The position numbers were made by a program, and so were the translations under genes. The notes beneath the pieces were generated by a model that was not told where the DNA came from, did no database searches, and was given only the letters and a program-made list of their open reading frames with translations. Shown piece after piece: positions 1,177 to 24,329 of a stretch of DNA of 28,896 bases; position 1 is the stretch's first letter; every line of letters starts with the position of its first letter. The stretch comes from an uncultured Candidatus Saccharibacteria bacterium (GTDB lineage Bacteria > Patescibacteriota > Saccharimonadia > Saccharimonadales > CAIOMD01), in the NCBI GenBank assembly GCA_964616505.1, contig CAZTUU010000002.1:14009-42904 (forward strand). The letters run 5' to 3'.

Positions 1177-2688
1177 CTATAAATGAAGTTCTGGGTATAT
1201 TGATTTAGTTACTTCGTCAACTTCGCTCTTTAGCTGCGGAAACGGTACACCCTCTCGTGCAGACACTCCCTCAAATATCCAAAAGACACGTTCACTGAAA
1301 CCCCAACCACATGCTGGAGGCATTCCATACTCTAACATCTCTACAAAATCTATATCTAACATCATTGCCTCATCATCACCATGATCGCGCAAACTTTGCT
1401 GTTCTACAAATCTATTAAGTTGATCTACGGGGTCATTAAGCTCACTAAATCCATTACCTAGCTCGCTACCAGCCATAATAGGCTGAAAACGTTGAACAGT
1501 ATTATCATTGCCTGGATTAGATTTTGCCAGTGGACTAATAAATTTAGGCGTGTTAATTAACCAAACAGGACCAGCCACATCTTTTCTAATGTTCTTCCAT
1601 AACTTATCTATTCCTCGAGCTTTGTTTTCTGTCTTGGCAACTTCTAACTTATTATCAGCTAAGGCTTTTTTTATTTGGTCTATTGTACAGTTATAGACGT
1701 CTATGTCATATCTTTTTTTAATGGTTTCGGCATAGTCCCATTGTGTCCATTCTTTAGACAGATCAATCTCAAACTTACCTAGCTTAAACTGCAAAGTACC
1801 AAAAGTTTTTTGCAATACATATCTATATAAATCTGTCATAAACTTCATGCCTGTTTGCCAATCCCAATATGCCGCATACCATTCCATGGCAACATGCTCT
1901 GGTAAATGCTCGTCACTATAATTCTCATTTCTAAAGCGTGGGCCAATATCAAACACCCTTTCGTAGCCTCCACCCAATAGTCGCTTTAGAGGTAGTTCGT
2001 GACTAATTCGTAAATAAAAATCTTGATCTAGGGCATCCATATGAGTTACGAATGGGTTAGCATCAGCCCCACCAGTTGTATGCTCTAAAACCGGAATATT
2101 AATCTCATAAAAATCATTTTTAAGCAGGAACTCTCTGGTTGCTTGCCAGAATTTACTACGCCTAATAAAGCGTTCGTAAACATCATTATTAACATTAGTA
2201 TCAATGTATCGTCTACGTAAACGTTCTTCTTTATTAGTAAAACCATCTTGTGTGGTTGGCATTGGCCTAAGTGATTTAGTAAGCAATCTCAGTTTTTTAA
2301 CTTCTACAGAAACCTCACCTGTTTGAGTTTTAATTACGGTTCCGGTTGCTTCTATAAAATCACCACTATCAAGTAAGTTAAGTTCTTTTAATGAAAGTTC
2401 TGAGTTGGGATAGTTAGGGTAATCATCTAAAATACCTGATTTTATAAATAGTTGAACTTGGCCACTACTATCTTTTAAGACAATAAAAGCCAGTTTTCCA
2501 AACTTTCTAATGCTTACAATCCGCCCGACAACTGTTACCTCTGTAGATTGTAAAACCTCAAAGCCACCACTAACCTCACCCGCAAATTTTGTTCTATTTG
2601 CTCCTGCTGGATAAGGATTAACACCCAATTGTTTTAAGTCATGAAGTTTGCGTAAACGCTCATCACGAAGTTCTTTTAATGTAGCCAT
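1177..2688 (-). CDS. lysS: Lysine--tRNA ligase (class II)
   Basis: N-terminal OB-fold (GRIVSIRKFGKLAF...GQVQL), GGADANPF, motif 2 FRNE...HLPEH, motif 3 EYGMPPACGWGFSERV. Confidence 0.98.
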   Translation of the reverse strand: MATLKELRDERLRKLHDLKQLGVNPYPAGANRTKFAGEVSGGFEVLQSTEVTVVGRIVSIRKFGKLAFIVLKDSSGQVQLFIKSGILDDYPNYPNSELSLKELNLLDSGDFIEATGTVIKTQTGEVSVEVKKLRLLTKSLRPMPTTQDGFTNKEERLRRRYIDTNVNNDVYERFIRRSKFWQATREFLLKNDFYEINIPVLEHTTGGADANPFVTHMDALDQDFYLRISHELPLKRLLGGGYERVFDIGPRFRNENYSDEHLPEHVAMEWYAAYWDWQTGMKFMTDLYRYVLQKTFGTLQFKLGKFEIDLSKEWTQWDYAETIKKRYDIDVYNCTIDQIKKALADNKLEVAKTENKARGIDKLWKNIRKDVAGPVWLINTPKFISPLAKSNPGNDNTVQRFQPIMAGSELGNGFSELNDPVDQLNRFVEQQSLRDHGDDEAMMLDIDFVEMLEYGMPPACGWGFSERVFWIFEGVSAREGVPFPQLKSEVDEVTKSIYPELHL

Positions 2689-20797: not shown

Positions 20798-23680
20798 TTA
20801 TTTATTTTTTATAATATTTATGTCGGCCTTTTTATTGTCAATTTTTACTTCAATACTATAACCATCTTCTACCTTGGTATATTTTGCTAAAGTTTCAAGT
20901 TCTATAATGTCTTGATACTTAGCGACGGCCCTAGCAAGCTCAGGGTCTTGAGTTACTATATTTAGACTGATTCTGTCATCTACCTCTAATCCTGCCTGTT
21001 TACGGGCATTCTGTACAGCTCTTATGACTTCTCTGGCTAGACCTTCTAGTTTTAGATCTTCGGTAATTTTTAAATCTAGTTCTATGTAGGGCTTATTGTC
21101 AATTTTTACTTCTACTTCCTTAACATTTAATTCTTCTCTTAGTATTTCACAAAGCTCTTTTTGTTCTTTTTCTGAGACACTTATACCAAAACATATAGTT
21201 GCCGTAGATAAGGGTTGCCTAACTTTAATAGCCGCAGCTGCACGTTGACTTAGGCCATCTGTGATCAGCTCTCTTGTTATTGCCATCTGAGCAATTATTA
21301 GCTCTTCTACGTGACCAGATTTTGGCCAATTTTGTAAATGCACAGATTTTTTATCTGTAAGTTTTTTGTATAATTCGTCGCTTAAAAATGGAGTAAACGG
21401 AGCCAGTACTAAAGATAGCTGAGCCAAAACATAATGTAGTGTTTTGTAGGCATCATCTTTATCGGCATCATTGTCGCTCTTCCAGAATCTTTTACGACTG
21501 CGTCTTACATACCAATTACTAGCATCTTCTATAAATGGAATTATTGGTTTTATAGCATTTGGCAAATCATACTTTTGCATATGCTCATCTACATCAGCAA
21601 TAAGTTGATGCAATCGAGATATTATCCAGATATCTAATATATTATTTAGTGTTGGTAATGGATCTTCTAGTTTGCCATCCCACCCCCAACCGTCAACATC
21701 TGCATATAGAGTAAAGAAGTCATACATATTCCACACCATGCCAAGCTTGCGAGCAATGTCTCCTACCTCTTTATCTAAAAGAGTTACGTCTTCTCCATTT
21801 AGCACTGGTGAGCTCAGCATAAAATAGCGCAGTGAATCTGCAGAATATTGATCCATTAGAATATTTGGATCTGTAAAATTATTCAGACTTTTACTTAACT
21901 TACGACCATCCGCTCCCAATAATGTACCGGTGGTAATTACATTATTATAGGCATTTTTACCAAATAGCCCGACCGATACGGCATGTACATAATAAAACCA
22001 TGCTCTTACCTGCCCAACATATTCAACAATAAAGTCACCCGGAAAGTTAGCTTCGAATTTTTCGACATTTTCGAATGGATAATGGAACTGAGCAAAGGGC
22101 ATACTACCACTCTCGAACCAACAGTCTAAAACCTTATCTATCCTCTGATACTCTACTCCATCAAGCGTGAATTTTATATCATCTACCCATGGTCGATGGT
22201 AATCTTCTAATTCTACACCGCTTAGATCTTTAAGTTCCGCATAGCTACCGACTACTTTTATACGCTCTTTGCCTTCTTTATCTACACCCTTCCAAACTGG
22301 CATAGCAGTTGCCCAGAACCTATCACGACTCAGATTCCAATCTGGGGCAGCCTGTATAGTTTTTGCAAAACGTCCATTTTTTAGGTGATCTGGAAACCAA
22401 TTAATATTACTATTTTGTTCTAGCATTTGTTGTCTCTGACTATCAATATCAAAAAACCAACTTGGCCAAGCACGATACATGAGCTTGGTTCCACATCTAT
22501 AGCAATGAGGGTAAGAATGCCTGACGTATTCTATCTTCCAAACGATTTCCTGTGCATGCAAATCTTTGGCAATTTGTTTGTTAATTTCCCAAACATTTTG
22601 GCTTATATATTCTCCCTCAATATAATTTCCATTATCATCAATTGTATTTACAAGCGGTATGCCATTTTGCTTCGCAAGCGCATAATCTTCTTCTCCAAAG
22701 GCTGGAGCAATATGTACTATACCTGTGCCGTCACTAGTACTCACATAATCAGCATGCCAGATTTTATGAGCATTTTTACCATGGTTTCCAAATAAAGGTT
22801 CGTAACTTTTGCCAACTAAATCTTTGCCCTTAATATATTTTGCAAGCTTATAATTTAGAGGCTTGTGCTTCTCGTCAGTTAAGACTTTAGCTACCAAATC
22901 TTTAGCAATAATTAGATTTTGACCATCTATTTCTACCAAACAATAAGTAACCTCACTATTAATTGCAAGTGCAGTATTTGCCGACAAAGTCCAGGGCGTA
23001 GTAGTCCAAGCAAGTAGGTACTCATTCGTACCGGCAAGCTTAAATTTTACATAAACACTAGGGTCGGTAACATCTTGGTAAGTACCCGAATCCATAGTAA
23101 CTTCTGCTTTACTTAGTGGTGTCGCATCTTGGGTACAATACATTAAAATTTTCTCACCTTCATAGATTTTGCCTTTATCATATAAGGCTTTAAAGGCCCA
23201 CCATACGCTTTCCATGTAATTCTTATCCATGGTTTTGTAGGCACCTTTAAAATCTACCCACCGCCCAATACGGTCAATTGTATCTTCCCATAAGCCACCA
23301 GTAGCTACCATATTTTCACGACAAGCAATAATATACTTTTCTAGACCATAATCTATAACTTCTGGCTTACCTTTAATTCCTAGCTTCTTCTCTGTAAAAA
23401 CCTCTGCCGGTAGTCCATGACAGTCCCAGCCCCATACACGCTCTACGTGCTTTCCTTTCATTGTCCAATATCTTGGCACTGCATCTTTTACAATACTACT
23501 CAATAAAGTTCCATGATGTGGTGAACCGGTAATAAATGGAGGTCCATCATAAAAAACATAGGCATTAGATTTTGGACGATCGTTTAAAGATTTCTCGAAA
23601 GTTTTATCTTCTTTCCATATTTGTACTAGATCTTTTTCGTATTCTAGAGCTCGGCGGCGTGTTCCTTTTTTAAATTTCAT
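20798..23680 (-). CDS. ileS: Isoleucine--tRNA ligase, type 2 (archaeal/eukaryote-like IleRS2)
   Basis: YDGPPFITGSPHHGT, GWDCHGLP, WTTTPWTL, DGTGIVHIAPAFG, DWNLSRDRFW, KLSKS; IleRS2-type C-terminus EGLAREVIRAVQNARK with no zinc finger. Confidence 0.97.
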   Translation of the reverse strand: MKFKKGTRRRALEYEKDLVQIWKEDKTFEKSLNDRPKSNAYVFYDGPPFITGSPHHGTLLSSIVKDAVPRYWTMKGKHVERVWGWDCHGLPAEVFTEKKLGIKGKPEVIDYGLEKYIIACRENMVATGGLWEDTIDRIGRWVDFKGAYKTMDKNYMESVWWAFKALYDKGKIYEGEKILMYCTQDATPLSKAEVTMDSGTYQDVTDPSVYVKFKLAGTNEYLLAWTTTPWTLSANTALAINSEVTYCLVEIDGQNLIIAKDLVAKVLTDEKHKPLNYKLAKYIKGKDLVGKSYEPLFGNHGKNAHKIWHADYVSTSDGTGIVHIAPAFGEEDYALAKQNGIPLVNTIDDNGNYIEGEYISQNVWEINKQIAKDLHAQEIVWKIEYVRHSYPHCYRCGTKLMYRAWPSWFFDIDSQRQQMLEQNSNINWFPDHLKNGRFAKTIQAAPDWNLSRDRFWATAMPVWKGVDKEGKERIKVVGSYAELKDLSGVELEDYHRPWVDDIKFTLDGVEYQRIDKVLDCWFESGSMPFAQFHYPFENVEKFEANFPGDFIVEYVGQVRAWFYYVHAVSVGLFGKNAYNNVITTGTLLGADGRKLSKSLNNFTDPNILMDQYSADSLRYFMLSSPVLNGEDVTLLDKEVGDIARKLGMVWNMYDFFTLYADVDGWGWDGKLEDPLPTLNNILDIWIISRLHQLIADVDEHMQKYDLPNAIKPIIPFIEDASNWYVRRSRKRFWKSDNDADKDDAYKTLHYVLAQLSLVLAPFTPFLSDELYKKLTDKKSVHLQNWPKSGHVEELIIAQMAITRELITDGLSQRAAAAIKVRQPLSTATICFGISVSEKEQKELCEILREELNVKEVEVKIDNKPYIELDLKITEDLKLEGLAREVIRAVQNARKQAGLEVDDRISLNIVTQDPELARAVAKYQDIIELETLAKYTKVEDGYSIEVKIDNKKADINIIKNK

Positions 23681-23705
23681 AATTTCTCCTGCTGTTATTT
23701 TACAA

Positions 23706-23935
23706 TATAAAAACCACTGGCATAACTTTCGTTATATATTCGGATCCCACCTTAGTGGGAGGTACCATCCGAATTACCAGTGGATTAAAGTCTCTTTGGT
23801 CTCTTATTTACTGCTATTTACGTAAGCATCATAACGTCGAGTTCTACTTAGACCAATAAATGGTCCGTTCTTCTCAATGTTTTCATGGCTGATAACCACT
23901 ATTCCTTTTTACAAGAAGGAGCACATCTCTCTAAT
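23706..23935 (-). promoter_or_regulatory. T-box riboswitch in the ileS leader
   Basis: Antiterminator AUUCGGA-UGGUACC-UCCCAC(UAAG)GUGGGA-UCCGAAU (bulge 23761-23767); upstream AUC in a hairpin loop (23891-23893), stem II GGACCA/UGGUCU with adjacent AGUA and GAA motifs, F-box-like CGUUAU (23831-23836); U5 tract at 23709-23713. Confidence 0.85.
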
Positions 23936-23972
23936 TTTCATTGAATAGCTAAACTTAACAAATATGGTTCTC

Positions 23973-24239
23973 TTATTTTGAATTGTCGTAATACATTACT
24001 TCGTTAATTAATGGAAGATTTTCACCGACCCATAACTGTAGCAACTGCCCGTCGTCGGCTAAAGCCAACACTGCAGGATGTTGCATGATGTCATATAACG
24101 AAGCGGTAGCATATCCATCACGTGTATTAAGATCATACATGGTGATTTTATGCCCAGTCCGACGCTCGTACTCCCTGTTATAGTCTAGCACTGACCGTTC
24201 GAACTCACTGTTACTACGATATAATATCGCAATTCTCAT
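23973..24239 (-). CDS. Small hypothetical protein, thioredoxin/glutaredoxin-like pattern without cysteines
   Basis: Strand-helix-strand pattern (MRIAILY / SEFERSV.. / ITMYDL) then YDIMQHPAVLAL..DGQLL, resembling the y.v..vPt.....G segment of Trx folds; SD AGGA; follows nrdJ. Confidence 0.7.
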   Translation of the reverse strand: MRIAILYRSNSEFERSVLDYNREYERRTGHKITMYDLNTRDGYATASLYDIMQHPAVLALADDGQLLQLWVGENLPLINEVMYYDNSK

Positions 24240-24329
24240 AGAGCTTCCTATCGTTTTTTGACGACTGCATTTTAGTTATTACAATAAAGTAACAAATTAA
24301 ATTTATACAGATCGTCCAAGTTTATTTGT

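Follow-up and report, generated by a model that had tools for sequence, protein, structure and literature searches.

T-boxes are the textbook RNAs that tell which tRNA is present and whether it is charged, and to our knowledge all described versions switch by unfolding the hairpin built from helices A1 and A2. The closest described systems are the actinobacterial ileS T-boxes with an ultrashort Stem I, of the M. tuberculosis/M. smegmatis type (Sherwood et al. 2015, as reported in PMC7583486; studied in PMC12647780 and PMC11297988), in which a sequestrator replaces A1/A2, hides the Shine-Dalgarno sequence and acts on translation. In the canonical transcriptional T-boxes of Firmicutes (RF00230; Bacillus subtilis tyrS and glyQS), a long Stem I carries a K-turn, a specifier internal loop and distal interdigitated T-loops, and the 3' strands of A1/A2 are drawn into the terminator. 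As a rule, control of transcription by a T-box depends on such a long Stem I, and those known with an ultrashort one act on translation (PMC7583486). Here we analysed a 28,896-nucleotide (nt) stretch of DNA, called the window below, from an uncultured Candidatus Saccharibacteria bacterium (contig CAZTUU010000002.1, positions 14,009 to 42,904), in which a leader on the minus strand precedes ileS. Judging from sequence comparison and structure prediction, it is quite probable that this leader is a transcriptional T-box riboswitch for ileS, in which a locked Stem III would hold off a terminator that encloses A1/A2 and leaves them folded.

That the leader is a genuine T-box is virtually certain. 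A scan of the whole window against Rfam at the gathering score returned no match. With an E-value threshold, RF00230 aligned over its full length (model positions 1-219 over 23921-23738; local E-value 4.9e-5), so that the search proposed in an earlier note on this sequence succeeded end to end but stayed below the gathering threshold, at 30.3 bits against 93. The low score arose mostly because 48 distal Stem I positions of the model were deleted in the alignment, and the match was the sole one of its kind in the genome. Homologous leaders preceded ileS in four genomes of the same family. A covariance model built from five sequences, the window and four same-family relatives (model R1), matched 108 of 151 sampled genomes of the same order, which spans 71 families, nearly always with one copy each; applied to 151 genomes from across the phylum it gave 11 matches, six of them outside the order and from three families. 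IleRS was encoded downstream of 78 of the 83 leaders examined, usually directly. When 92 leaders were aligned, standard pairs filled 91.6% of the base-pair cells, compared with 62.8% after shuffling and 33-41% when pairing partners were slid by 1-3 columns, and 40 of 43 pairs had changed on both sides. As this alignment was fitted to R1, its pairing figures lean towards the model, and the key helix was retested free of any alignment. The identification as an ileS T-box in the earlier note is thus borne out by the full-length RF00230 alignment, the R1 matches across the order, the downstream IleRS and the covarying helices. Standard annotation by the Rfam gathering score misses the whole Saccharibacteria T-box family.

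The expression platform is made up of the following parts, in window coordinates.

23929-23709, minus strand: T-box leader, upstream of ileS.
23738-23774, minus strand: antiterminator, with A1 AUUCGGA (23774-23768)/UCCGAAU (23744-23738), bulge UGGUACC (23767-23761), A2 UCCCAC/GUGGGA (23760-23745) and loop UAAG.
23775-23783, minus strand: 5' strand of the terminator base helix, CCACUGG (23783-23777), extendable to CCACUGGUA, covering the 3' part of the Stem III loop and the Stem III 3' strand.
23722-23735, minus strand: hairpin AUAAC-GAAA-GUUAU, an insertion specific to the window; the four closest relatives have a linker of 4-5 nt instead.
23709-23722, minus strand: 3' strand of the terminator base helix, UGCCAGUGG (23722-23714) with core CCAGUGG (23720-23714), then UUUUU (23713-23709).

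The base helix consists of seven perfect base pairs (bp), CCACUGG/CCAGUGG, or of 9 bp with the U-G and A-U extensions, and the five uridines follow immediately. RNAfold placed it in the minimum-free-energy (MFE) structure (z = -3.0, with 0 of 200 shuffled sequences folding as well), and RNAalifold likewise predicted it. It corresponds to helix 7 of the 92-leader alignment, where all of its eight pairs show double changes and 90.3% of the cells are paired, which is the covariation that the earlier note had asked to be looked for. The four closest relatives keep the 5' strand unchanged, and their 3' strand varies (CCGGUGG, CUAGUGG) with pairing kept. Across the order the helix is formed by unrelated sequences, among them CACUUCUUUUGG/UCAAAAGAAGUG, AACUUCUGGAA/UUUCGGGAGUU, GAGUCAUCUC/GAGAUGACUU, GACGUCUCUUAUGG/UCGUAAGAGACGUU and GCCACCAG/CUGGUGGU. 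For the alignment-free test we searched for contiguous helices between the last 32 nt upstream of A1 and the 18 nt that lead up to the first U-run downstream of A1, RNAduplex without length limits having over-extended the helices. At least seven contiguous pairs were present in 66 of 78 leaders versus 38% of non-cognate combinations, a control that is inflated by shared ancestry. In nearly all leaders the helix ended at the U-run. We regard the enclosing helix as very probably real; its proposal, as a pairing directly before UUUUU around an intact antiterminator, is confirmed by its place in the MFE fold and by its conservation.

There is good reason, on the predicted structures, to expect that this helix acts as a terminator. 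A G+C-rich stem ending directly at a U-run, the geometry of an intrinsic terminator, is present in the window and in nearly all relatives as well, and the long hairpin, since it ends at the U-run, would therefore be an intrinsic terminator that contains the 'antiterminator'. With the terminator 3' strand included, the leaders folded at a predicted energy lower by 8 kcal/mol (median); in the window the value fell from -21.3 to -31.0 kcal/mol. The multi-branch shape that had been envisaged for the terminator applies to the window, where the AUAAC-GAAA-GUUAU hairpin adds a branch, but not beyond it: the terminator of relatives has no side branch and consists of base helix, small internal loop, A1, bulge and A2 in one long hairpin. 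A simple terminator scanner misses the enclosing terminator because the enclosed loop exceeds 8 nt, and the terminator finder of TBDB searches only downstream of the antiterminator. The usual competitor was not found where it would be expected. For the 3' half of A2/A1 in the window, the best complement was 4 bp in the segment before the U-run and six G-U-rich pairs within the next 107 nt, which agrees with the earlier remark that the A1 3' strand has no downstream complement, and in 50 of 78 relatives such a competitor reached at most 5 bp.

The 5' strand of the base helix lies within the discriminator region that precedes A1.

23801-23805, minus strand: purine string AAGAG, which fits the RRRxG motif of PMC7583486.
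23776-23800, minus strand: Stem III, ACCA (23800-23797)/UGGU (23779-23776) with a 17-nt loop, then linker AA (23775-23774), as placed by the Rfam alignment.

The RRRxG-Stem III-AA motif was defined from crystal structures, and capture of the tRNA 3' end depends strictly on both Stem III and RRRxG/AA: without Stem III there is no appreciable binding between antiterminator and tRNA, and the flanking purines latch onto the tRNA-bulge duplex with uncharged tRNA only (PMC7583486). In the M. tuberculosis ileS T-box, charged tRNA (a mimic) makes Stem III leave the antisequestrator (PMC12647780). Because of these results, we take Stem III docking as the element that reports tRNA charging. The window matches the discriminator (AAGAG-ACCA...UGGU-AA-A1) with an enlarged Stem III loop, and Stem III ACCA/UGGU folded once the terminator 3' strand was held unpaired. 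Among relatives, a hairpin ending no more than 4 nt from A1 was predicted in 52 of 78, AA stood directly 5' of A1 in 71 of 80, and AAG-N-G immediately preceded Stem III in those that have it. The strand UAGCAGU (23816-23810), put forward earlier as the Stem III partner of ACUGGUA, was ruled out: the pairing would contain a central G-G mismatch, and the AGCA within it (23815-23812) is the IIB strand that pairs with UGCU in the IIA loop. UAGCAGU is the 3' strand of the IIA/B pseudoknot, and the true Stem III is ACCA/UGGU.

The terminator 5' strand overlaps the predicted Stem III hairpin in 49 of the 52 leaders that have one, and base helix and Stem III are mutually exclusive because they share these nucleotides. 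The competition between Stem III and the long-range helix that the earlier note had suggested therefore fits the comparative data, though with ACCA/UGGU as Stem III. In many leaders, for example L012, L018 and L044, the downstream strand approximately repeats the Stem III 5' strand and the adjoining part of the loop; in L012 and L044 a Stem III of 9 bp faces a base helix of 15 bp. As modelled, this layout would be that of a classic strand displacement starting from a toehold in the loop.

The half of the leader that would decode the tRNA lies further upstream.

23923-23929, minus strand: leader start GAGAU and the 5' strand AUGU (23926-23923) of the Stem I base helix, with its partner ACAU at 23880-23877.
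23903-23920, minus strand: 5' hairpin within Stem I, UCCUU/AAGGA (helix 1; four pairs, all with two-sided changes, 81.5% paired in the 92 leaders).
23885-23899, minus strand: specifier hairpin GUGG/CCAU with the 7-nt loop UUAUCAG and AUC at 23893-23891 (helix 2; 99.2% paired, with compensatory changes).
23837-23877, minus strand: Stem II, with lower helix UUGAG/CUCGA, S-turn-type loop AGAAC opposite AGUAGAA, and upper helix GGACCA/UGGUCU, a motif aligned with RF00230.
23812-23837, minus strand: Stem IIA ACGU/ACGU, F-box CGUUA (23836-23832) and IIB UGCU (23828-23825) with AGCA (23815-23812), seen from covariation.

GAGAU was invariant among the five closest leaders. The Stem I base helix, which encloses the 5' hairpin and the specifier hairpin, is AUGU/ACAU in the window and AUAC/GUAU in relatives, a double compensatory change. 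The AUC in the apical loop was kept in at least 86 of the 92 leaders; the loop consensus is CUAUCAA (47 of 92), and the stem varies around the constant AUC (GUGG/CCAC, GCGG/CCGC, GCAG/CUGC, GUAG/CUAC, AUGG/CCAU, GUGA/UCAC). The earlier placement of AUC in a terminal loop thus stands, while the 5-bp stem and 5-nt loop drawn for it give way to the 4 bp and 7 nt that relatives show. A specifier AAC (Asn) at the classical position after the S-turn GAA was rejected, as AAC is not conserved among relatives. Stem II (AGAAC/AGUAGAA, 23877-23837) and the F-box CGUUA lay where they had first been read; the Stem II helices (helices 3-5) were 77-94% paired with double changes in 10 of 11 pairs, and pseudoknot IIB (helix 6) was 85.4% paired with double changes in all five pairs. 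The very short Stem I is accompanied by Stem II and the IIA/B pseudoknot, in keeping with the actinobacterial type with a terminal-loop specifier to which the leader had been assigned.

Two leaders from other Patescibacteria families precede valS (NF004349, 777 and 810 bits); their apical loop shows GUC with A as the next base.

L166, positions 1501-1698, minus strand (genome G252): valS leader, an R1 match, with NF004349.
L169, positions 1501-1679, plus strand (genome G314): valS leader, an R1 match, with NF004349.

This natural swap from AUC to GUC before valS is good evidence for the apical triplet as the specifier. In both valS leaders a helix and U-run enclose A1, bulge and A2 as in the window's leader, so the design is limited neither to ileS nor to the order. 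The specifier matches the amino acid of ileS, and tRNA-Ile(GAU) was found in seven related genomes. In one of the genomes examined (G001), the gene for tRNA-Ile(GAU) lies about 90 nt upstream of another tRNA gene. Comparison of this kind shows a decoding half predicted to read tRNA-Ile(GAU) through the apical AUC.

The sensing half, in which the bulge UGGU is predicted to pair with the tRNA 3' end, is likewise shown by comparison. A1 has 7 bp and A2 has 6 bp (helices 9-10, 95-100% paired with covariation in the 92 leaders), and the antiterminator read from the window alone, with A1, the UGGUACC bulge and A2, was recovered at the same positions with A1 and A2 covarying. Across 83 leaders the bulge was UGGUACC in 70, UGGAACC in 10, UGGCACC in 2 and UGGGACC in 1. 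A1, bulge and A2 were the same in both predicted conformers, with and without the terminator 3' strand.

In the switch that we propose, uncharged tRNA-Ile(GAU) would be read by AUC in the 7-nt, anticodon-loop-like apical loop of the very short Stem I, the Stem II S-turn and the IIA/B pseudoknot would back up decoding as in actinobacterial ileS T-boxes, and the tRNA 3' end would pair with the bulge UGGU between A1 and A2. The flanking AA would then be docked on the tRNA-bulge duplex and Stem III would be locked, so that the base helix could not nucleate, RNA polymerase would pass the U-run and ileS would be transcribed. With no tRNA or with charged tRNA, Stem III would be loose, the downstream strand would invade it from the loop toehold CCAC, and the terminator would close and stop transcription. 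At no point would A1, bulge and A2 be unfolded; base helix, A1 and A2 together would make up one long terminator hairpin. We judge switching by Stem III competition to be somewhat probable, its dependence on tRNA being what we infer from the leader.

Several observations weigh against this account. Stem III of the window has just 4 bp against the 7-9 bp of the base helix, and it is conceivable that the base helix stacks coaxially on A1 in place of Stem III, in which case tRNA would not be excluded. About a dozen relatives do without the Stem III hairpin (AAGUCCC-AA-A1), and many of these can use the strand before the U-run for a classical terminator with the A1 3' strand instead (GAGCUCCU/AGGGGCUU, 8-9 bp).

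L028, L043, L045, L049, L061, L066, L068, L069, L074, L091, L099 and L100: leaders of the sub-type without Stem III.

For the family as a whole, competition with Stem III can thus be no more than part of the explanation. At the sensing end, the A2 pair beside the bulge is U23760-A23745 and not the G-U wobble at this end of A2 that chiefly senses the aminoacyl group by steric means (PMC7583486); in 80 relatives this pair was U-A in 30, G-U in 26 and G-C in 22. No covariation links the fourth bulge base to the tRNA. tRNA-Ile(GAU) had A73 in all seven genomes checked, five of which have UGGA, one (G001) UGGC and one UGGU; a bulge U would match A73, but the UGGA leaders (G165, G111, G059, G109 and G098) and the UGGC leader face A73 too, so that their fourth bulge position is mismatched with the discriminator. 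Lastly, tRNA-Ile(GAU) was absent among the 27 tRNAs that ARAGORN found in the window's assembly, probably an assembly gap (61 contigs) and not a true loss.

The sub-type without Stem III bears most directly on a different means of blocking the same terminator, in which docking of the purine string would hide the 5' strand, or the bulky tRNA complex would hinder closure of the 60-nt loop sterically or kinetically. In these leaders GUCCC pairs with GGGAC or GGGGC before the U-run, and a pre-U strand GGGGCUU pairs with AAGUCCC; the enclosing helix is thus kept and its 5' strand covers the position of the purine string. Two ileS leaders from outside the order (L159 and L162) are alike, with no Stem III hairpin and with AAGUCCC-AA-A1. 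The shortness of the window's Stem III also speaks for some other block. Where Stem III is present, however, its overlap with the terminator strand is near universal, and a downstream strand that nearly copies the Stem III 5' strand into the loop is the hallmark of strand displacement. We consider blocking by such other means unlikely, though with an appreciable residual chance, and the sub-type without Stem III may be an evolutionary intermediate.

Translational control, with the U-run being no terminator and tRNA governing access to the Shine-Dalgarno sequence, would place the window with the actinobacterial ileS T-boxes, and the known ultrashort Stem I T-boxes are indeed translational (PMC7583486). 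The start codon lies just about 30 nt beyond the U-run, and in the MFE fold of the window CUCCU near the 5' end pairs with the Shine-Dalgarno sequence AGGAG. This CUCCU/AGGAG pairing is, however, not conserved among the closest relatives, and we treated it as a chance anti-Shine-Dalgarno. No complement of the A1/A2 3' strands overlaps the Shine-Dalgarno sequence, and nearly all leaders keep a G+C-rich helix abutting the U-run despite changes in its sequence, which marks an intrinsic terminator and not a sequestrator. We therefore find translational control improbable for the window. Two relatives have no U-run or enclosing helix after A1 (L011 in genome G126 and L016 in genome G160), and L016 has the bulge UGGGACC and a start codon within about 30 nt; these two may use a different, possibly translational, platform.

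Classical attenuation is the design given in textbooks (PMC7583486); the terminator would invade the A1/A2 3' strands, the long-range helix would be a by-product, and some relatives could work in this way. Sorted by platform, 34 leaders had the enclosing helix only, 16 the enclosing helix with a competitor of at most 5 bp, 20 both, 3 the classical terminator only, 5 weak helices and 2 no U-run. Besides the three with only the canonical form, about nine others had strong versions of both helices, and a minority of relatives, which lack Stem III, can form GAGCUCCU/AGGGGCUU with the strand before the U-run. Against this, the A2/A1 3' half has no more than weak complements in the window and in 50 of 78 relatives, and the long-range helix is strongly covarying and part of the MFE fold. 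The family spans classical, dual and enclosing designs and the window is clearly of the enclosing type; that classical attenuation operates in it is very improbable. Equally remote is the reading of the T-box as a relic that no longer switches, or as a tRNA binder serving some other purpose, its hairpin and U-run forming a constitutive leaky attenuator: the fourth bulge base that does not track the tRNA discriminator, the U-A pair in place of the G-U sensor and an unusually stable A1/A2 hairpin that needs no tRNA to form would suit it, but the tRNA-contacting elements (AUC, S-turn, pseudoknot, UGG-ACC, RRRxG/AA) are conserved across about 100 tiny, streamlined genomes and the specifier becomes GUC before valS.

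Set beside the described systems, the window's leader resembles the actinobacterial ileS T-boxes in preceding ileS, in a very short Stem I whose terminal loop carries AUC and which has no elbow-binding distal platform, and in its Stem II S-turn, IIA/B pseudoknot, RRRxG-Stem III-AA and UGGN bulge. It differs in an extra 5' hairpin under a short Stem I base helix and, above all, in its platform: A1/A2 would never be replaced, the conserved structure leaves the Shine-Dalgarno sequence unpaired, and an enclosing helix with a U-run overlaps Stem III. With the Firmicutes transcriptional T-boxes it shares the bulge, F-box, S-turn and discriminator motifs and a predicted U-run intrinsic terminator directly before an aminoacyl-tRNA synthetase gene. 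In contrast to their long Stem I with its internal-loop specifier, Stem I here is tiny with a specifier in the terminal loop; and whereas the canonical terminator takes the A1/A2 3' strands, the one predicted here takes a Stem III strand, with A1/A2 kept in both states.

We slightly favour the view that these leaders form a distinct T-box class, dominant in Saccharibacteria, whose antiterminator would be permanent and whose terminator would invade the charging-reporting Stem III, coexisting with classical versions. The enclosing-terminator wiring appears to be common to about 100 related genomes, and we found no description of it in the searchable T-box literature. Nor did a search of that literature return a T-box in Saccharibacteria, Patescibacteria or the candidate phyla radiation (CPR); most subscription journals lay outside the search, and novelty is to that extent unproven. 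The TBDB description of phyla mentions none of these three groups. If the U-run hairpin terminates transcription, the family contradicts the generalisation that transcriptional T-boxes need a long Stem I (PMC7583486). If the proposed wiring is true, this would be the first transcriptional T-box to work without a long elbow-binding Stem I, the classical-terminator versions in the same order would document a rewiring, and the expression platform would be more modular than thought. Docking of Stem III, lately seen by single-molecule work, would then be open to direct functional read-out. The leader would join the few cis-regulatory RNAs documented in the ultra-small, host-dependent Saccharibacteria, and its compactness would make it attractive for engineering tRNA-responsive switches.

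The leader lies between an open reading frame (ORF) of 88 amino acids (24239-23973) and one of 960 amino acids (23680-20798), both on the minus strand.

20798-23690, minus strand: Shine-Dalgarno sequence AGGAG (23690-23686) and the ileS coding sequence, with AUG at 23680-23678 and its end at 20798, encoding 960 amino acids.

The 960-residue product was identified as IleRS by NCBIfam TIGR00392 (794.7 bits against a cut-off of 621.4) and contains the Pfam domains tRNA-synt_1, Anticodon_1 and DUF5915. The Shine-Dalgarno sequence begins 18 nt beyond the U-run. The 88-residue ORF (23973-24239, minus strand), which stands between a class II ribonucleotide reductase gene and the leader, had no Pfam match, and a scan for sigma-70 promoters gave none on the strand of the leader. 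The genome of the window amounts to 745 kb in 61 contigs. The host had been taken from the sequence as a probable CPR bacterium, which holds: it belongs to Saccharibacteria, and four relatives with the same 21-base leader motif are labelled in the database as uncultured Candidatus Saccharibacteria or bacterium. Near-identical DNA and RNA fragments of window positions 23300-24300 were found at very low depth in several wastewater metagenome and metatranscriptome runs, in the RNA runs solely as contigs of 150-200 nt with a depth of 2-4. These fragments suggest that the window's organism lives in wastewater.

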